A stretch of 64,000 bases of DNA from an uncultured Phycisphaerales bacterium (GTDB lineage: Bacteria > Planctomycetota > Phycisphaerae > Tepidisphaerales > Tepidisphaeraceae). The notes under the pieces were generated by a model, which did not search any database, had not been told where the DNA came from, and worked only from the letters and a program-made list of their open reading frames with translations. Of this stretch, positions 48,520-58,968 are shown one piece after another. The stretch's first letter is position 1. Each line of letters opens with the position of its first letter. Location: assembly GCA_963758525.1 (NCBI GenBank), contig CAVWVQ010000003.1, forward strand, positions 2,752,001-2,816,000, given 5' to 3'. The position numbers and the translations under genes were made by a program.

Positions 48520-51500
48520 CTATCGAGCACCGGCGAGGTTTGCCGTCAGATGTTCCAGAACTACCCAAAGCCCAAATCCGCTGGAAGGAAGCAGAATCGC
48601 CGCGAGCCACGGGTACTGCGACAAGATCGAAAATGCTCCCCGGCGTTCCTCCTGCACCTCATTTGCCAATAGTTCAAATGTCTGCGCCAGAAGGATCACT
48701 ATCCTGTACGCAACTCAGCTTTCGCTCCTGCAGCTTTCTCAATGCCGTCTCCCGCGCCCTCTCCGCGCTCTGCGCAAAAGAATCGCGGCCAATAGCGCCA
48801 GCGCTACGTTACTTGCGAGAATGATCAGTAATCCCACCGGCCAGTCCCAGTTATCAAATAAGCTGATCCTCGAAATAATAATCAGGAAATAAATGATAAA
48901 AGGAAGGTAAATGACGTTGCCTACAACTTCGGTCCGCATTGCGATGAAGCGGATATCGAGATACTCCGCAAGCTCGGCCGGCGCGATGAGCTTCGTTTGA
49001 AGTTGGTCGTATGCACACGCGGGCCAATGAGTATCGCGTTTCAACAGAAGGTGGATGATCTTCGAGTTGAGATAACTGGCATCAACGACATAGAACGTGA
49101 AGGCAATTGATGAAAAGACGCTTAGCATGGTAATCCCCCGATCCCAGGCGGCAACGTCGTGGCCCCTGGCGGGAATTTGAGGGTCGCCGAACAGTTGAAT
49201 GAGTTGCCAGGCGGCATAGAAATAGAGCGCCGCTCCGAGAAGCACGCGAAGCAATCGAACTCGGTTGTCCGCGCACAGCCGTATTCCTTCCACACGTCCC
49301 ACGCATACACCTTCGCGGCATCGGAATGTGTGCCGAGCTCGGCCGGTGAACCGACTCGCTGACGAGCACAGTCGATTCCATAGACCTTCCACCTTTTGAA
49401 GTTCCTGTGCAGCGCCGCCAGAAAGGGCGCAGGGGATAGGCGCTTGCTGAGCCCGAACTTCTTGCAGATTTCGTCGTTGCTTTTTTTCAAATCGTAATTT
49501 GCCTTATAGATGAAGTGGAAACAGAGCATCGCTGCGAGCAACCGGAGCGCCTCCGTCGGCCAGATGCTAAGCCCCTCGATCCAGGCAAACGGCTCCTGAT
49601 AAAATTCGTATTTCACGATGAGAAAATGGACGGTGAGATAAACGACCGCCGTCGCGAAAACGAGGAAGACTGTCGTATAGCTCAGGAACCGCGGCACGTT
49701 GAGCTTCGCCGGCCGGACTCCGAAACAGACGGGTACAATAAACAACAGCGCCAGAGCAATGGATAGATTGCGAAACAAATTGCGGCGCCTTCCCCCTGGT
49801 CCCACCATGACTTTAAGTCTTGCCGCGGCGGTTGAATCTGTGATGGCCTGTCCTTCTCGCCGGAATACGGTCTAACCTCTCCTCCCTCCTCCGATTGGCT
49901 CGCGCGATCGACGCTCATATCGAACGCTTCGGTTCGCCCGATTTCATAAACCCGCGGCAGCCCGAGCTGCTGCCTCCATCCTCCTTTCTCCATTTGCGCC
50001 GGGTCCACCGCCGCGACGGTCGCCGCGAATCCAGCAGTTTGAAGCGAATCGCGAAATGGCGGAATATTCCCCTGATAATATCGATGCAACCGCAAGCCAA
50101 AGCCGGAGGCGACAAGCAGGTTGTGCGTTGTCCTCCATTCGGAAGGAAGGTTGTACCGGGCGTCCAGGTCGGTAGTGAAGTAGACGACGCCGCTGGAAAG
50201 CCGGTCGCGAACCGCGCAACACCAGCAGCTTGTCATACAGGTCAGTACCGAGGATTCCGACAGCGGCAAGATGATTCCCATCGCGCCGCAGATCGGCATC
50301 CCATTCCGCCAGTTGATCCGCCAAGCGGCGCAAATAGTCCGATTGAGCCAGCCCTTCCGGCGGCTCCGCGGCACCGCCCAATTTGAGGCTGGCTCGCTCC
50401 GTCTCTCGGGATTTTGCGGCATCAGAGGCTTTGCCGCTGTTACCGGTTCCTGCAATCTTCCCATCGATGCCGCGCAGATAAACAAATGCCCTGATCCAGC
50501 CGGAAAATTCTTTGCCTCCCCAGTCAGCGCCGCCACTCGCCGTCCTGTGGCGGCGGCAACGAAATTGAAAGAAAGTGCACGTCCGAAAACCGTATCCCAC
50601 TCCCCGATCAACGCAATATAACCGTGCGATTCTGCATCAATGGGAGGGATCTCGCCAGCTTGAGAAGCCGCGGGTTGCCCAATGCTCTCGTCGCAATACG
50701 AAAGGAACTTCCCGGCTGGAAGATCTACGTTGCGTCGGTACAATTCGGCTGCGAGTTCGTCGCAAATGTTCGAGTCGGTGAGGGTCGTCCGCACGAACCG
50801 GAATGGTTCGATGCGGTTGCCTCGAAAACCGCGGGATAGATAGGCGCTGACACTTTCGCGCGCCCTTCGCGGATTAAACGAGCACTTCTCGTCCAGAAAC
50901 AGGGCCTCATCCGAGGCGGTGGCCCACGGAGACATGATCTCGATACTGCCGCGTCGACCGAACGAATCGAACGGACCCGGACGCGACGAATCGGGATAGT
51001 CCTGAGCCTCAGCCTCCTCGACCATCGCGCGCAATGTCGTTGACACGCACGGACCGATGATCCTCACGTTTGCGTTGACCCCCCTGGGGATGACTGACTG
51101 AAGAAGCCATCCCAATCGCGTCATTGGAAAATCATAAAACACATTTTCGTTAACCCAGAGAACCAGGACCTTCTTGTACGCTGTATCGCCCTTGGTTTGT
51201 CGGGCAATTGGAACTCCGGCCATCGGCACGCCGGGCGCTTCGCACCACTCGTAAGGAATCACCAGATTTAGGATCAGATCGCCCGCCCAAGTGTGGTCGG
51301 GAAGCTGGGGGCGCGGCAACTCGGTCATGCGGGTTGAAGGCCATCCCATGGTGAAATAGCCCAGATGAACGGTATCGTCGGGTTTATACCCGCGAATTCC
51401 CAACGCCTCCAAGACCGCTACGCGGGTGCGAATTCTCCGCTCGGCTATTTCGGGGTATGCGTCCCCCTGCACCATCACGGGAAGTATCAGGGTCGACTCG

Positions 51501-51979
51501 CCCCTGACCTGTGCGGTGTCGATGATCTGATCCTGTATCTCCCGAAGCGAATGACGCGGAGGCGGAATCAGCTTGGCCAGCGGTATGCTGCCGGGCTCCC
51601 GAGGGCTTTTCGTCAAACCGTCGGCTGCTGATTGGGTCCCCATATGCGGACACGCCGATTCGGTGGAAAGCGCGTCTCCCTGGTAATGGCCAAGTTGCAC
51701 CTTGCCATTGAACAGCGATTTGCTGCCGGTGCTGATGTCGATGGATGTGGTCTCGGTCCACGACGTCGGCGGGTGGTATTCGCTGGAGACGGCCTCAAGT
51801 GGATCTTGCCAAAGCCTCGCGTCCACGTCCTCGTCACCAATTGTCTGACTATTCGTTGCGGTAAAATCGGGGCGATCCGTCGTGAGCGGATGGTAATACA
51901 GAGATGCGCTTCCCACCGCCAGAAACAGCGCCATTAACGTTGGCCACGGAATAGAGCTGGCCCCTTTTTGTTCAGCCAT
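48520..51979 (-). pseudogene. Large uncharacterised membrane protein broken by about six frameshifts
   Basis: Continuous protein-like sequence across frames: DARLWQDP, EWDTVFGR, YLRGIDG, QSDYLRRL, GTDLYDKLL, FTTDLDAR, PPFRD, then TM segments to a TAG at 48520. Breaks may be sequencing errors. Confidence 0.65.
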
Positions 51980-52099
51980 TGCGCACCCTAAGGGGTGTCT
52001 CTACCCGATCGATCTTCCGCCTGTAAAGAAATCCGTGCGCCCGCGACAATTATTTGCCATCGCCATAATTGGCGTGTCAAGCCTTATTCGCTGCTGCGG

Positions 52100-52580
52100 C
52101 TCAAATGGTGGAACCCCGCGGCTTGATCAGCCTCGGATCGAACTGATGCCGAAATTCTTTTCCAATTGGATGTTGCCAAAGTCCGGATGCAACACGTTCA
52201 GGAGGAAATTGCTCTCGCCTTGAATGATCGCACTCGGCACCTCAAGAACGGCTGACACACCCGACGCCACCCAATCCGTCCCGATCTTCTGCACGGCAGC
52301 GGGGATTGGATTGGCACGCCAGTTTCGAGGCAGGTCTGTCAAGCGAACTCCCTGACCAATCCGTCGTCAAAAGTGACCGACCGCACCGCGTAAGCGCCCA
52401 TGATCTCCGACGACTGGAGATGAACGAGCATCTCAAGCGACGCAAGCGAGACGGTTGCCGATGTGTAAACTACGGCGACGCCCTTGCTGTTGAATCTGCC
52501 GCCGTGGAGCCGCGCTCCTTCGCCCGAAAAGGCAGTGGACGAATGCTTGCGCTATAGATGCGCCAAGCAGTGATCGTCAC
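52100..52580 (-). pseudogene. RES-domain toxin (MbcT/ParT-like) with three apparent frameshifts
   Basis: GTGA-coupled start; across frames AWRI, AFSGEGARLHGGRFNSKG..VVYTS..SLA.LE.LVH, IGTDW...VLEVPSAII..E.NFLLNVLHPDF, FDPRL. Confidence 0.85.
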
Positions 52581-53338
52581 GTAAAGATTCCATGTTCGAG
52601 ACGGCCGATCAGGTCCTCAACCTCGCGTGCACCGATGTCGGTTTGAGCGAAATCGAGAGGTTTCTGCCCAGCAAGCGCGGGCTGCGGCGTCTGCAGCCAT
52701 TCGATCGCGGCCCTTCGGTCACCCTCAAAGAGCCCCACCGCCTTGTCAACGACTCTTGCGGCCCGAATCAGGCGGTCGCGATCGTCCCGCTGCAGAACTT
52801 CGATATATTCCGGCGGCACGTGCTCGGTCAGCCAGACGCCATTGGCGCTGACGAAAAAGGGGACGCCGTCGCGATGCATCTGGCCGGACGACACTTTCAG
52901 CAGGATCGGATCTCCCCGCCGTTCACCAACCTTCATTGCCGTCGGCACGTCAACGCTCAAATGCACGTGATGCCGCTTGCCCTTGATTAGTCCAGCCTTG
53001 CGGATCGAATTGAGGAATCGATCGACCGTCCCGTGATAGAGCGTCTCCGGTGGAACCGCCGGCTCGTACCCGAGTTCCACGGCAACGCTGTGTCCCTGGC
53101 TGGCGCGAATCTTCTGGCGATCCTCGCTGAACGCGAAGCGTTTCTTGTCGCAGGTGTCGACAACTTCGTTGAGCTCTGCTTCCGACACGGGAAACTTCGA
53201 TCTCCCCATCGCGTCGAGCAATTCACGGACGCTCACCCAGCCGGCTTCATCGAGCGTGATGCCAATTTCCTGCGGCTTGTGCCGGAGCACCAGGCTCAAA
53301 AACTTGCTGATTCTTGTGATTCGCTGCGTTTGCATCAT
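52577..53338 (-). CDS. kptA: RNA 2'-phosphotransferase KptA/Tpt1 fused to an Xre/MbcA/ParS antitoxin C-terminal domain
   Basis: SKFLSLVLRH, KKRF, IRASQGHS, YHGT, RHHVHLS, NGVWLT, then in frame DRLIRAARV...LFEGD...WLQTPQPALAGQKPLD...GAREVEDLIGRLEHGIF. Confidence 0.9.
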   Translation of the reverse strand: MMQTQRITRISKFLSLVLRHKPQEIGITLDEAGWVSVRELLDAMGRSKFPVSEAELNEVVDTCDKKRFAFSEDRQKIRASQGHSVAVELGYEPAVPPETLYHGTVDRFLNSIRKAGLIKGKRHHVHLSVDVPTAMKVGERRGDPILLKVSSGQMHRDGVPFFVSANGVWLTEHVPPEYIEVLQRDDRDRLIRAARVVDKAVGLFEGDRRAAIEWLQTPQPALAGQKPLDFAQTDIGAREVEDLIGRLEHGIFT

Positions 53339-53390
53339 CGCACCATTCAACTGTCCATGTGGCCATTCCCTTGGAAATGGGGTCGACGAT

Positions 53391-53460
53391 GTAGGGCGGG
53401 ATTCATCCCGCCGTGCCTTCTGCAGAATCACCGGCTACGGCGGGATGAATCCCGCCCTAC
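53391..53460. repeat. GTAG-family REP doublet, family B
   Basis: GTAGGGCGGGATTCATCCCGCCGT...ACGGCGGGATGAATCCCGCCCTAC between pncA and kptA. Confidence 0.9.
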
Positions 53461-53479
53461 AGGAAGCCGGCCCGCGCGT

Positions 53480-54088
53480 TCAGATGGAATGCACCACCAG
53501 CGTCACTCCCGCCGACTTCATTTCGTCCAACGCGGCGTTCACGTCGCCCGGCTTCAACTCGACGCCCCTGCATCCGTCCGCGATCAGCCAAACCCGGAAC
53601 CCGGCCGAGACCGAGTCCAGTGCGGTAAACTTCACGCAATAGTCCGTCGCCAGGCCCATCACGTACACGTCCGACACGTTCCTCGCCTTGAGAAATTCGC
53701 CAAGTCCGGTCGACCTGCGGTGACCGTTGTCAAACAGGCCGCTGTAGCTGTCGATGCGCGAATCAGTTCCTTTGCGAAACACGCGATCGATACGGGCCAC
53801 ATTCAGATCGGCACTGAACGCCGCGCCGCGAGTGTCCTGAACGCAATGCACCGGCCAGAGCACTTGGGGAATGCCGTCGAGATCGATCACTTGTCCGATG
53901 TGCGTTCCGGGATGATTGGCCGCGAAGCTTGCGTGGTCGGGCGGATGCCAATCCTGCGTGGCGACCACCAGATCAAATCGATCCATCACTAAATTCGCAA
54001 TGGGGACGACCTCATCTCCGCCGGGAACCGCCAGAGCGCCGCCGGGGAGAAAATCATTCTGAAGATCGACAAGAATAAGTGCCTTCAT
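53480..54088 (-). CDS. pncA: Nicotinamidase/pyrazinamidase
   Basis: VDLQNDF.PGGALAV, TQDWHP..H, WPVHCVQ, KG, GLATDYCV. Confidence 0.95.
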   Translation of the reverse strand: MKALILVDLQNDFLPGGALAVPGGDEVVPIANLVMDRFDLVVATQDWHPPDHASFAANHPGTHIGQVIDLDGIPQVLWPVHCVQDTRGAAFSADLNVARIDRVFRKGTDSRIDSYSGLFDNGHRRSTGLGEFLKARNVSDVYVMGLATDYCVKFTALDSVSAGFRVWLIADGCRGVELKPGDVNAALDEMKSAGVTLVVHSI

Positions 54089-54133
54089 TCAAAGGTCTCA
54101 TATTTCGAAGCTGATCTTTTCTTGCTCGCTTTA

Positions 54134-54187
54134 TTGTGGTGCAGGCTTTCAGCCTTCTCAGATAGCAGGCTGAAGTTTGCACCACAA
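54134..54187. repeat. Degenerate family A palindrome
   Basis: TTGTGGTGCAGGCTTTCAGCC...GGCTGAAGTTTGCACCACAA between pncB and pncA. Confidence 0.8.
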
Positions 54188-54196
54188 TGAGATTCC

Positions 54197-55678
54197 TCAG
54201 TGTTCGTCACCCTGATGCCGGGCGGCGACCAGCATCTCATTTCGCAGACGATTGAGCGATGCCTCCAGTCCGGCGGGATATCCGTGCGGATTGAGCAAGC
54301 GCGTCACCGTCGGATGCAGCGCGTTGATCTGCTCCCTGGCCCGTTGCCGCACCGCGTGAATCGACGGAATGTCATAAACGCACTTTCCGTTCCGCATCAC
54401 TGGTACGAGAAGGTCCTCCCACTGCGCATCGGCGCCGATGGTTTTCCAACGCGTCTCGTCGTTCGGATCGACCAGTTTTGGCGCCGCGCCGATGCCCTGC
54501 GGTTCGTCGTAGATCATGTCGGCCACGAATTGGCCGCCGTTGCTGTACCGGCGCACCTGCAGAATCCCAGGGTAGGAAGCCTTGGCGCGCTGTTCCGACG
54601 CCTTGATCTTGTACTGCCAAGGCGCGTCGGCCGAATCGCGGATGGCCGAAAGCTTGTAGACCCCGCCCAGCGCCGGCTGATCGAACGCCGTCGCCAGACG
54701 TGTTCCCACGCCCCACACGGAAATCTTCGCCCCCTGCTGTTTGAGCGACTCGATCAGATACTCATCCAGATCGTTGCTGGCGACGATCGCGGCGTCGTGC
54801 AGACCGGCATCGTCGAGAATCTTGCGCGCCTCGATACTCAGATAAGCAAGGTCGCCGCTGTCGAGCCGGATACCCGCCATGCGATGCCCGGCGGCCGCAA
54901 GCCGGCGCCCAACCTCGGCGGCGTGACGCACGCCCTGGAGCGTGTCATACGTGTCCACCAGGAAAACGCAGTTGTTCGGCATGACCCTGGCGTAAGCCGC
55001 GAATGATTCCAGCTCGTGATCGAAGCTCATCACCCAGCTATGGGCGTGAGTGCCGCGCACGGGAATGCCAAACAGTTTCCCCGCCAGCACGTTGCTCGTC
55101 GCTGCGCAGCCGCCGACGTACGCCGCCCGGCAGGCGGTGAGACTTCCGTCGATTCCCTGCGATCGGCGCAGGCCAAACTCGATCACTGGATCATCGCCCG
55201 CCGCCCTGCAGATTCGCGCCGATTTGCTCGCGACCAGGGTCGCAAAGTTGATGAGATTCAGCAGCGGCGTTTCCAGAAGCTGACACTGAAGGATCGGCCC
55301 GCGCACGCGGATCAGCGGCTCGCCCGGGAACACAGCCGTTCCTTCCGGGATCGCGTCGATGTCGCAGCTCCAGCGAAGCTCGCGCAGCGCGTCGAGAAAC
55401 CCATCTTCAAACAATCCCCGCTCGTCGTTTCCCTTCAGACTGGCGAGATAATGAAGGTCATCCTCCGCGAAGCGAAACGCCTCGAGAAACTCCACGACCG
55501 ATTCCAGGCCGCAGGCGACCGTGTACCCGCCCTTGAACGGATTGCTGCGGAAGTACAGATGAAACACCGCCTCCTGCGCGGTTTTGCCGAGCTTCCAATA
55601 CCCATGCGCCATCGTAAGCTGATACAGATCGGTCAGCAGGGCCAGCGAATTTTTGCAGGTGCTGCCTAGGGCGTTCAT
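54197..55678 (-). CDS. pncB: Nicotinate phosphoribosyltransferase
   Basis: [57 protein letters not shown]. Confidence 0.96.
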
Positions 55679-55929
55679 GAAATACCCACGGCGCTGGCGG
55701 GTCTGGCTGCATCCGGCGGATGCTCGCCGGCAACGCGCAGGACCCTCCGCAAGTTAACCACGCCAACACGATTCAGTTGCAGTTTATCGACTGCGCTTTT
55801 TGGAATAATGTGCTCGACCGAGAATGGGTCGGGGGAGAAACGGGCTTGACTGACACAGTACTCGCAACAGGCGTGCGCGCGCTCGGTCAGCCATTGCCGT
55901 TGGGCTGTCGTGAGCTTTGGCTCAGGCAT
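55675..55929 (-). pseudogene. HNH endonuclease remnant with in-frame internal deletion
   Basis: RAHACCEYC...FSVEHIIPKS joined directly to AVDKLQLNR; the N.A..C..CN core is absent. Confidence 0.75.
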
Positions 55930-56308
55930 CAGACCCGGGGCTAATTCCCAGTTGCTGCATCAGTGCATTCAGAGGAACCCGGCAAAGCCGGGCCAATTCG
56001 GCGACGTACCCCATGCGTCGAGCATTAGCTTGTTCGATCTCATTTGAAAGCTCGATCAGCGATCGATGCTCCTCGGGCGACAACGTCTCCGCGCGTCGCT
56101 TCTCCACGAGAGCGTGATATTGCTGCCAAGTCGCCGATGAAATACCAAGATTGATCTGCTGCAACAACTCGACTTCAGTGCCCGGGGGATCACCCAGCAC
56201 ACGCTTCAGTGCTTCGGCAATGTACGTGGCGGCATCGACGCCCTGTTTGGCTGCTTGATGCCGCAATCCGGCCTCGAGGACCGGATCTAATTCGATCGTT
56301 ACACTCAT
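55922..56308 (-). CDS. Antitoxin-like hypothetical protein paired with the HNH gene
   Basis: RHH-like N-terminus (MSVTIELDP.LEA.LR..A...G), then ELLQQIN...Y..L..KRRAETLS.EEH..L; overlaps the HNH start. Confidence 0.7.
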   Translation of the reverse strand: MSVTIELDPVLEAGLRHQAAKQGVDAATYIAEALKRVLGDPPGTEVELLQQINLGISSATWQQYHALVEKRRAETLSPEEHRSLIELSNEIEQANARRMGYVAELARLCRVPLNALMQQLGISPGSDA

Positions 56309-56424
56309 GCGTTGCCTGCATCATATCCTACACATCGCTGGCACACGCTTCCAGAGGGTTCATTCGTGGATTCGTGAAGCTGCGTCCCGTTTTCACTTCC
56401 CAAGGAAATCCGCCTGTTGCCTGC

Positions 56425-56600
56425 CTTGACCAGGCGGCAGGGTCCATGGGCATTACCCAATCCGTGTTGTCACGGCTCGAAGCGCAGCACGACATGTACG
56501 TCGGCACGCTTCAACGCATCGTCAAATCGCTGCGAGGCCGGCTGCAAATCATCGCCGACATGCCAAATGGCCAACGTGTCTCCGTCGGCCAGTCCCCCGA
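56425..56600 (+). pseudogene. XRE/HigA-type HTH regulator remnant
   Basis: AAGSMGITQSVLSRLEAQHDMYVGTLQRIVKSLRGRLQIIADMPNG in the frame of ORF 56209..56751; N-terminus missing. Confidence 0.7.
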
Positions 56601-57015
56601 ACCGCATGCTTGCCAAACGGATTCAGGCTGCACCAAGCGGTGGCGAGCGATGAACGCGCCACCGTGTCCCTGCGACTTCAATACCCTACGGATCGCAATC
56701 CGTAGGCTTGTGCATCAAAGAGTGGGATGGGCTCAGTCGCGTTCCCATTGACGTTACCCCTCTGTTCCAGGAAAGCCAACGGATTGCCATCCGTTGGTCT
56801 CACCCGCTTCGAGAATATCGCTGAGGAGCATCAGCTCTGCCCGCCCCTGGTGTGGTACAAGGGGAGGCAGGCAATCAACCCCGGTTCTTTGGGCATGTCC
56901 CGAATTGGACAAGGACCGCGGCTCGGCCTTGTGTTCAGTTCCCGCACTCTTGATAATTTCTGCTCGCGGCGGCGGCTGCGTTTTGACTTTGTCACTTCCG
57001 GAGGAGGAAACGATC

Positions 57016-58968
57016 GTGCCATTCACATCGCGTCACGACGCGGCGGAAGACGAACTGACGCTCCTCCGCACGCTCGCCGGGCAGTTTCCCAACGTCGACT
57101 GGGCGATGGCCGAGATCGCGCGACTCTCGGCGGTTCTCACGCTCCCCAAGGGAACGATTCACGTCATCAGTGACATTCACGGCGAAGACAAAAAACTCCG
57201 CCATGTCATTAACAACGCCTCGGGCACGTTGCGCCCGTTGGTGGAACGGCTCTTTGCCGATCGGATGAGCCCGAAGGAATTTCAGGAGTTTCTCACGCTC
57301 ACGTTTTACCCGGCGGAGATTGCCGAAAGGATGGAGCAGACGGCGATGGACCCGCGCGAGCTGCGGGAATTTGCGATTCGCACCATGCGGCATCAGTTCG
57401 AGCTGGTGCGGGTTCTCTCGACGCGATACAGCCTGCGCCGCGCGATGGCGGTGTTTCCCGCCGAGTATCAGGAGCTGCTCGCCGAGATGCTGCACGAGCC
57501 GACCACGGAACGCGACAAGGAATTCATCGAGGCGGTCGTCGACGAGCTGCAGCAACGCGGGCGAGTCCTCCACCTCATTCACATCGCCGGGCGATTGGTC
57601 CGGAATCTGGCGATTTACGAACTCATCATCGGCGGCGACTGCTGGGACCGCGGCCCGCGCGGCGATCGCGTCGTCGATTACCTTCGCCAGCAGCCCAACG
57701 TCTCGTTCATCTGGGGCAATCACGACATGGCCTGGCTTGGCGCGGCGCTCGGCCACGAGGCGCTGATCTGCTGCGTCCTGCGCGTCTCGCTGCGCTATCG
57801 CCGGATCGGGCAGCTTGATGAGGGATACAGCATCCCGCTCACGCCGCTGGAGTATCTCGCCAACACCGTATACGCAGACGATCCCGCCATTCACTTCAAG
57901 CCTAAGTCATCCGGCATGCGGCCCGACGTTCTGGTCGCCCGCATGCAAAAGGCCGCGGCGATCATGCAGGCGAAGTTCGAGGGGCAGATGATCGGCCGCA
58001 ATCCCCATTGGGAGATGGACCACCGCCGTCTCCTGCACCGCATCAATCACCTTGCCGGCACGATCGAGGTGGACGGCGCTGCGTATGCGTTGCGCGACAC
58101 GCATCTGCCGACGGTCGATCCCAAAAACCCATACGAGTTGTCCTCCGAGGAGAAAACGTGCATTCGCCGGCTGCGCGACTCCTTCACCGCCAGCCAGAAG
58201 CTCGGCGAGCACATGCAGTTCATGGTCAACCGCGGCTCGATGTTCCTCCGCCGCGACCAGAATCTCATCTTTCACGGCTGCGTCCCCTGCGACGAAAAAG
58301 GGGAGTTTCTTCCGATGCATATCGACGGCCAGCCACTCGCCGGTCGCGCGATGTTCGACACGATCGAGAAAGTGGTGCTCCGCGCGATCGAGCGCCGGGC
58401 CGAGGGCGACCTCGATCTGCTCTGGTATCTCTGGAGCGGCCCGCGGTCGCCGCTGTTCGGCAAAGACCGCATCGCCACCCTCGAGCGCGATTTCATCGCC
58501 GACAAGAAGCCGCATCACGAAACGAAGGACCCATACTTCACGCTGATTCACGAGCGCTGGTTCTGCGAGAAGGTGCTGACGGAATTTGGCGTTGATCCGC
58601 AGGAAGGCCTCATCGTCAATGGCCACGTCCCGGTGAAGATCGAAGCCGGGGAGAGCCCGCTGAAGCGCAGCGGCAAGGCCATCACCATCGACGGCGCGTT
58701 TTCCGAAGCCTACGGAGACATCGGCTACACGCTCGTTCTGGAAGCCGACCGCACGCTGCTCGCCACGCATCATCACTTCGAATCCGTCGAAGCCGCTCTT
58801 CGCGACGGGGTCGACATCGTGCCCAGCGTTTCCATCATCCGCATGTGGCCCAGCCCGCGCCGCATGGCCGACACCGAGCGCGGCAAGGAATTCCGCAGCC
58901 GGATCGCGATGCTCCAACGGCTCATCGAAGCCTACAGGAACAACGATATCCGCCAGCAGAAAGCCTGA
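57016..58968 (+). CDS. fbp: Fructose-1,6-bisphosphatase class 3
   Basis: LPKGTIHVISDIHGE, GDCWDRG, WGNHD, FHGC, WYLW.G..SPLFGKD, NGHVPVK, IDGAFSEAY; GAGGAGG RBS then GTG. Confidence 0.92.
   Translation: MPFTSRHDAAEDELTLLRTLAGQFPNVDWAMAEIARLSAVLTLPKGTIHVISDIHGEDKKLRHVINNASGTLRPLVERLFADRMSPKEFQEFLTLTFYPAEIAERMEQTAMDPRELREFAIRTMRHQFELVRVLSTRYSLRRAMAVFPAEYQELLAEMLHEPTTERDKEFIEAVVDELQQRGRVLHLIHIAGRLVRNLAIYELIIGGDCWDRGPRGDRVVDYLRQQPNVSFIWGNHDMAWLGAALGHEALICCVLRVSLRYRRIGQLDEGYSIPLTPLEYLANTVYADDPAIHFKPKSSGMRPDVLVARMQKAAAIMQAKFEGQMIGRNPHWEMDHRRLLHRINHLAGTIEVDGAAYALRDTHLPTVDPKNPYELSSEEKTCIRRLRDSFTASQKLGEHMQFMVNRGSMFLRRDQNLIFHGCVPCDEKGEFLPMHIDGQPLAGRAMFDTIEKVVLRAIERRAEGDLDLLWYLWSGPRSPLFGKDRIATLERDFIADKKPHHETKDPYFTLIHERWFCEKVLTEFGVDPQEGLIVNGHVPVKIEAGESPLKRSGKAITIDGAFSEAYGDIGYTLVLEADRTLLATHHHFESVEAALRDGVDIVPSVSIIRMWPSPRRMADTERGKEFRSRIAMLQRLIEAYRNNDIRQQKA

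Follow-up and report, generated by a model that had tools for sequence, protein, structure and literature searches.

A KptA-antitoxin fusion beside a frameshifted RES toxin gene in a Tepidisphaeraceae genome: a probable product of toxin-antitoxin erosion

Is a single protein that joins an RNA-repair enzyme to the toxin-binding part of an antitoxin a designed system or an accident of genome decay? The question is raised by a stretch of 64,000 nucleotides (nt; hereafter the window) from contig CAVWVQ010000003.1 of an uncultured Phycisphaerales bacterium (GCA_963758525.1, family Tepidisphaeraceae), part of a 6.47-Mb, 6-contig genome that is 91% complete. Its minus strand carries pncB, pncA, a fusion of KptA with the C-terminal domain of an Xre/MbcA/ParS antitoxin, and a RES-like sequence (Table 1), as a prediction made from the sequence alone had described; both PncB and PncA score above their NCBIfam cut-offs. 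The original prediction offered two explanations, either a guard-type design in which the state of KptA controls a toxin that destroys nicotinamide adenine dinucleotide (NAD), or a recent deletion that fused two neighbours. We find that a recent deletion likely joined neighbours in a decaying toxin-antitoxin pair, so that the fusion would probably be an accident of this genome and not a new system.

Tpt1, the family to which KptA belongs, moves the 2'-phosphate of RNA to NAD+ and releases nicotinamide, and bacterial KptA is described as having no settled role (PMC6333775). RES toxins degrade NAD+ or ADP-ribosylate Prs, and the C-terminus of the antitoxin plugs their active site (PMC6436930, PMC7758455). 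The helix-turn-helix (HTH) of Xre represses the promoter of the operon (PMC12204516), and NAD salvage counters the toxin NatT (PMC11535050). KptA and RES both appear in NAD+/ADP-ribose conflict networks, in passages that describe no KptA-Xre fusion (PMC9503650).

The fusion protein and its junction

The KptA part of the 253-amino-acid (aa) fusion is matched by PF01885 at residues 6-172 (168 bits versus 26) and by NF002014 (265.5 bits versus a cut-off of 239). The Arg-His-Arg-Arg tetrad defined for Tpt1 (PMC6333775) is found at Arg19-His20-Arg67-Arg122, aligned with R18, H19, R68 and R121 of the Clostridium thermocellum enzyme (6E3A), the HGT motif occupies residues 102-104, and none of the 81 columns conserved among 119 relatives is changed. 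An alternative start of a longer open reading frame (ORF) at 53,431 falls within a palindromic repeat, and the relatives begin at a Met near 53,338. The antitoxin part is matched by PF09722 at residues 203-250 (66 bits) and by TIGR02293 (73.3 versus 57), and falls below the whole-protein cut-off of NF049845 (73.8 versus 90). It is 76% identical to residues 124-195 of a full antitoxin (P0248), and the antitoxin relatives align with the fusion from residue 182 through its last residue, so the native C-terminus is kept. The join at residue 181/182 (~52,795) is sharp and has no linker, as the KptA relatives align through an invariant YIE (residue 180) and mostly end 2-6 residues later. Only two of 29 columns conserved among 119 antitoxins are changed, both just after the join and in a state seen in none of the 119 relatives; these adjacent changes may be one event. 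The antitoxin stop overlaps the RES start as GTGA (52,580-52,577), which places the antitoxin directly upstream of RES. The original prediction was right about the complete KptA running in frame near 52,795 into an antitoxin C-terminal domain and about the overlapping stop and start.

The HTH half of the antitoxin is missing. The full antitoxin matches the locus only with residues 124-195, and there is therefore no HTH sequence nearby in any frame; on this ground a single indel restoring a separate antitoxin start, already dismissed in the original prediction, is rejected. PF20432 (Xre HTH) has no match in the protein or in the 91% complete genome, and a relocated HTH half was looked for elsewhere in the genome and not found. 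The predicted fold (from a 7-sequence KptA alignment; mean predicted local distance difference test score 73.6, mostly below 70 in the tail) shows only that the first antitoxin helix would begin directly after the last KptA strand, the tail being modelled with low confidence.

An assembly artefact that joined two nearby genes would fit an error-prone, 6-contig genome and a unique architecture. Pieces from four soil sequencing runs of one study match the locus with 0-2 differences, and one of them, a 151-nt record of run X3, covers 52,740-52,890, and thus the interval 52,750-52,850 in which the original prediction looked to reads for a decision. It is a single low-depth piece, with 56 and 95 bases on either side of the junction, and it shows no differences and no gaps. 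Moreover, the exact 253-aa protein occurs on a 2,225-base contig of Logan, a separate assembly that may share reads with the genome assembly, and no HTH half displaced by a false join was found elsewhere in the genome. The fusion junction is real, and an artefact is scarcely credible.

The same architecture was not recovered from any other organism. In searches restricted to proteins of 139-443 residues, the best 120 of 8,000 matches scored with the whole protein were, apart from the fusion itself, KptA alone (119 of 119, 177-214 aa), and the corresponding 119 proteins from the best 120 of 609 matches to the antitoxin region all carry PF20432 together with PF09722. None of the best 150 of 10,764 matches from an unindexed search of a 1.84-billion library extends past query residue 205, and the Xre and RES profiles have no match in 269 KptA relatives. 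A match across both domains was found in no other genome among 60 relatives, 140 genomes of the family and 400 of the phylum (overlapping sets), none of 1,339 plasmid records covers 80% of the fusion, and viral contigs yielded no fusion. The ESM Atlas returned KptA clusters only (at 0.86), a contig scan gave six distant loci, and at 102 of 105 kptA loci a stop follows within 15 codons. On these best-ranked matches, below which a distant fusion is still possible, the fusion looks private to its source organism. For each part, the nearest relatives among the matches listed are full-length and stand alone as proteins, and this, together with the private fusion, supports the deletion put forward in the original prediction, which had itself held that an architecture confined to one assembly, or relatives with separate genes, would speak against a functional design. 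No account of a KptA-Xre fusion was found in a literature search (supplements lay outside its scope), and the architecture appears undescribed so far, as had been supposed.

KptA is joined to other partners elsewhere. A second family was present in 12 of 42 KptA representatives with C-terminal extensions chosen for a Pfam scan (PARG in five and, weakly, in one more; Nudix in four; Macro in one; an alpha/beta hydrolase in one), a further weak PARP match fell inside a KptA domain, and PF09722 occurred in none of the 42. Natural fusions to microbial PARG, Nudix and Macro domains recur (P0369, P0373, P0401, P0428, P0462, P0378, P0384, P0400, P0422 and P0457). To judge from these sequences, C-terminal extensions are tolerated by KptA.

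State of the RES toxin gene

The RES-like sequence is present where it was predicted; the intact toxin is not, and the original prediction had merely hinted at damage by speaking of a "repaired toxin". The gene reads as four pieces separated by three frame changes, each one base short, near 52,555, 52,345 and 52,165. An intact RES ORF is absent from the assembled sequence, and the pieces score below the whole-protein cut-off of NF049844.

Are these breaks in the genome or in its assembly? If they were sequencing errors, RES would be intact, the fusion would be its sole antitoxin, and the state of KptA (its substrate, NAD+ or attack by a phage protein) could release an NAD-degrading toxin, with PncA and PncB permitting recovery. 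The assembly does contain true indel errors: when 160 conserved genes were compared with 420 kb from a genome of the same genus, 24 of them, including the essential EF-G, AspRS and GlmS, proved to carry one frameshift each (24 in 191 kb, 0.126 per kb), mostly base losses in GC-rich, often GCGC, contexts. About 15% of the conserved genes in this genome thus carry an assembly frameshift, and since breaks close to the ends of genes escape the comparison, this rate is a minimum; broken genes of this genome therefore need care.

Even so, three frameshifts in 0.477 kb of RES compare with ~0.06 expected at the background rate (P ~3e-5, and 2e-3 if that rate is quadrupled), no more than one frameshift occurs in any of the 24 affected control genes, and the third RES break lies outside a GC context. 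In addition, the exact broken 71-aa RES piece is found on a Logan contig of 2,225 bases, the same size as the contig bearing the fusion. This piece contains the third break, and its separate call requires the second. As a control, eight truncated housekeeping fragments were taken, of which seven are in the collection and none of these seven occurs in Logan; the neighbouring HNH and 128-aa proteins do. No near-identical full-length RES is present among the 120 matches listed, the best reaching 76%.

Several observations pull the other way. When RES is read through its breaks, only two changes appear at 44 conserved columns, and 35% of the relatives have as many, in a test biased by the fact that the relatives were found with part of the same sequence. 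All three breaks are one-base losses, the error type of the assembly itself, and two of them adjoin CGC/GCGC contexts, as most background errors do. No short-read record covers any of the breaks (the check spanned 51,500-56,500, over which the four DNA runs are patchy). The Logan contig may derive from the genome's own long reads, the Logan copy of pncB has a frameshift of its own, the control fragments may be missing from Logan in part because its contigs are fragmented, and the Logan check bears on the second and third breaks. Taking both sides together, we hold that the RES toxin is very probably truly broken, and recently so.

The guard-type option of the original prediction consequently finds no support: the toxin is frameshifted three times, its broken fragment is reproduced by another assembly, the searches made turned up no relatives of the fusion, and Xre or RES stands beside kptA at none of 105 loci. 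The ability of NAD salvage to counter a RES toxin in Pseudomonas aeruginosa (PMC11535050) would suit such a guard, as would the lack of excess substitutions in RES; we nevertheless regard it as very unlikely. Equally slim is the chance that the breaks are errors shared between long-read assemblies and that a guard was newly born from a kptA-xre-res neighbourhood inside a salvage operon.

Two further RES genes occur in the genome, at L189 (C4, ~155,960-157,000) and L188 (C3, ~1,741,955-1,742,395). The L189 toxin gene comes before the gene of a PF09722 protein, a toxin-first order, and its match contains one stop. As candidate targets for cross-neutralisation by the fusion, both genes are divergent, one barely scoring on the profile of the present RES family and the other not at all.

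Ancestral layout, deletion and the NAD salvage cluster

Among the matches listed, the best KptA match (P0003, 80%, 183 aa), a joint-best antitoxin match (P0248, 76%, 195 aa, full length) and a RES match of joint-highest identity (P0157, 76%) are unfused Logan proteins, and the longest contig of each has 6,487 bases. This size is the sole value common to the KptA, antitoxin and RES lists (118, 119 and 118 values given). The antitoxin and RES lists have twelve contig sizes in common, as expected of adjacent genes. A shifted-size control gives 0.25 three-way matches when the lists are used in full, and 0.065 KptA-antitoxin matches when contigs of 4-10 kb are considered. To judge from the shared contig size, an unfused kptA, xre and res neighbourhood is probably the ancestral layout. 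Antitoxin relatives have 65-123 residues before the joined point (median 86; 116 of 119 measured), which, with a promoter region, would make the deletion roughly 0.3-0.6 kb long.

We propose an ancestor in which pncB-pncA-kptA stood ahead of a distinct xre-res pair that was expressed from a promoter of its own. The toxin would have been inactivated first, an order that we assume, freeing the antitoxin from selection. The deletion would then have taken the last few codons of kptA with their stop, together with the promoter of xre and the part encoding the HTH, and by chance have left the kptA and antitoxin frames joined. KptA is predicted still to remove RNA 2'-phosphates with NAD+, with PncA and PncB recycling the nicotinamide, and the antitoxin tail is predicted to have no cognate toxin to block and to be unable to repress a promoter. 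We consider a deletion-born fusion beside a dead toxin highly likely whatever the order of events, and put the probability that the toxin was lost first, leaving a working KptA with a passenger tail, at roughly 0.7.

Signs of decay extend beyond the fusion. The HNH gene upstream of pncB lacks 68 codons in frame compared with three relatives, a loss that takes in the latter half of the HNH motif (a full-length relative carries PF01844), and a record of run X1 (55,761-55,911) bridges the deletion point with no differences; this is therefore a second clean in-frame deletion, 2.9 kb away. The adjacent 128-aa gene, which matches no family, we take from its resemblance to be a possible antitoxin-like partner of HNH, and the two (55,675-56,308) look like a second decayed toxin-antitoxin-like pair. 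A short frame on the plus strand (~56,417-56,600), presumably akin to the C-terminal part of an HTH antitoxin and lacking Pfam and NCBIfam matches, is possibly a third remnant.

In a different order of events, the deletion would have taken place while RES was active, and the fusion, made from the promoter of the salvage genes, would have served temporarily as a genuine antitoxin. A deletion would have been viable only if translation of the toxin-binding domain was preserved, and the lost autorepression would then have selected for inactivation of the toxin, with an identical present state. Against the proposed toxin-first course stand the suspiciously tidy breakpoints, with a whole KptA, a kept frame and the entire toxin-binding domain surviving. 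The piece that was kept, 72 aa, has the size of the ParS fragment crystallised with ParT (6D0H), MbcA and ParS block their toxins by the C-terminus that is intact here (PMC6436930, PMC7758455), and repression requires the HTH (PMC12204516). Apart from the two changed residues at the join the tail is free of lesions, with 27 of its 29 conserved columns unchanged, and RES looks recently broken. However, the nearby HNH gene shows that tidy in-frame deletions arise here without such a need, and the present case was selected because of its tidy look. Toxin-first decay is also much the commoner order: chromosomal modules decay mostly toxin first, and pseudogenisation in Photorhabdus affects the toxin only in 185 cases, both genes in 186 and the antitoxin only in eight (PMC13617665). 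We therefore view an initial role as antitoxin as unlikely, if still the strongest competitor to a toxin lost first.

Given that the original prediction grouped the whole locus around NAD, we also asked which of its genes belong together. The pncB-pncA-kptA part is real, and it exists in relatives without the toxin-antitoxin pair. The pncA gene lies upstream of kptA at 15 of 105 loci, which are related and not independent (13 of 103 after dropping two loci counted twice; kptA directly downstream of pncA is noted for L010, L011, L032, L033, L035, L039, L041, L054, L073, L078, L122, L123, L125, L126, L129 and L131), and pncB lies upstream at four. At 78 of the 105 loci, all of them free of Xre and RES beside kptA, at least 700 bases are available downstream. 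Conversely, pncA, pncB and kptA are found at none of 25 xre loci (flanks mostly 1.5 kb). A same-genus genome has the order pncB-nrtR-NADAR-pncA-kptA and a same-family genome has pncB, NAD synthase, nrtR, pncA and kptA, both without xre-res; the relatives G002 and G021 both carry nrtR in the cluster, and G021 also NAD synthase. In the window nrtR is absent from the cluster, and the NrtR of one relative, used as the only query, gives weak Nudix-like matches in the genome. As pncA-kptA recurs without Xre or RES in kptA loci and relatives, what is conserved as a unit is the salvage-plus-KptA cluster, to which the toxin-antitoxin pair is a neighbour at this locus. This suggests that bacterial KptA is tied to NAD salvage; in one literature search, terms for pncA, kptA and NAD salvage were joined in no paper beyond a viral survey.

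The unfused kptA-xre-res arrangement might itself be conserved in a small clade and functionally connect NAD salvage with RNA repair and an NAD-degrading toxin, which would be compatible with toxin loss followed by deletion. The three best relatives are probably on one contig at 76-80% identity, so that the neighbourhood would long predate the fusion, and salvage and a RES toxin have a physiological tie in P. aeruginosa (PMC11535050). Against this stand the single inferred contig, the counts of zero at the 105 kptA and 25 xre loci, and the family genomes that match both halves of the fusion, in which the halves lie on different contigs or ~1 Mb apart. Such a link is quite unlikely.

Within the locus (Table 1), the co-oriented run of genes begins upstream of pncB with the 128-aa gene and then the HNH remnant, whose stop overlaps the pncB start; pncB and pncA are adjacent and both intact. 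A promoter scan gave no sigma-70 sites, and terminators were at chance level. The repetitive extragenic palindromic (REP)-like palindrome has ~70 similar sites in the genome, many in tandem clusters. Downstream of RES, a large minus-strand gene (~48,540-51,990) matches no Pfam family and has two frameshifts, near 49,750 and 49,270; its relatives, for the most part open frames of ~930-1,180 aa, were found in 9 of the 140 genomes of the family and are often multicopy. On the plus strand, 56,794-58,968 encodes an intact Firmicute-type fructose-1,6-bisphosphatase (PF06874).

Table 1. Features of the locus, in window coordinates.
Feature	Position	Strand	Basis or remark
128-aa gene	55,922-56,308	minus	ORF; overlaps HNH start; no Pfam/NCBIfam match
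HNH endonuclease gene, 68-codon in-frame internal deletion at ~55,795	55,675-55,929	minus	alignment with three full-length relatives
pncB, nicotinate phosphoribosyltransferase, intact	54,197-55,678	minus	NF006695, 582.6 bits versus cut-off 469
pncA, nicotinamidase, intact	53,480-54,088	minus	NF008623, 265.9 bits versus cut-off 174
REP-like inverted repeat, 72 bp, 25-nt arms and 22-nt spacer	53,390-53,461		between pncA and kptA
Fusion ORF, 253 aa	52,577-53,338	minus	PF01885 and PF09722
KptA/Tpt1 part, residues 1-181, complete	52,796-53,338	minus	PF01885, NF002014, 6E3A alignment
Xre/MbcA/ParS antitoxin, C-terminal 72 residues, in frame	52,577-52,795	minus	PF09722; alignment to P0248
RES toxin pseudogene, four pieces	52,101-52,580	minus	frame reading; PF08808 and NF049844 matches on the two larger pieces

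Comparison with known systems

Read as the outcome of toxin loss followed by deletion, the locus has little import of its own: it is a clean example of toxin-antitoxin erosion creating in-frame chimeras with neighbours, and it warns against inferring a designed system from a tidy two-domain protein that is seen in one genome. The recurrent coupling of pncA with kptA, to which relatives add nrtR, NADAR and nadE, points to a bacterial KptA that is fed by, or regulated with, NAD salvage. If the fusion did serve for a time as the antitoxin, it would show that antitoxins can gain new N-terminal domains in one step.

The KptA part has the same full two-lobe domain, Arg-His-Arg-Arg tetrad and HGT motif as the Tpt1/KptA enzymes of Runella (7KW8) and C. 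thermocellum (6E3A), and differs from them in its 72-aa antitoxin tail, of a family absent from the 42 extended representatives scanned. With the RES-Xre systems (Xre-RES of P. putida, ParST of Sphingobium, MbcTA of M. tuberculosis and NatRT of P. aeruginosa) the locus shares a PF09722/TIGR02293 domain upstream of, and overlapping, RES, and the tail matches the structures 8GUG and 6GW6 and, weakly, the 72-aa ParS fragment 6D0H. In contrast to these systems, KptA here takes the place of the antitoxin's HTH half and promoter, the toxin carries its three frameshifts, and antitoxin and toxin both fall below their whole-protein cut-offs (NF049845 and NF049844). The pncB-pncA order is that of NrtR-type NAD salvage clusters (pncB, pncA, nrtR, nadE), whereas nrtR, NADAR and nadE are absent from the cluster here, which has remnants of toxin-antitoxin genes on both sides.

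Guard-type or sensor-fused toxin-antitoxin defences, CapRel among them, combine a live effector with an architecture that is conserved from genome to genome. The fusion resembles them in carrying a covalent extra domain on a toxin-antitoxin component, and has neither the conserved architecture nor the live effector. With the eroding chromosomal toxin-antitoxin islets described in PMC13617665 the locus shares clustered modules, truncated or frameshifted toxins and small deletions, except that here the proposed deletion ran on into the housekeeping gene next door, which produced a chimera in frame. A chimera that is found in a single genome, next to a broken toxin, is one form of the usual erosion of toxin-antitoxin modules.

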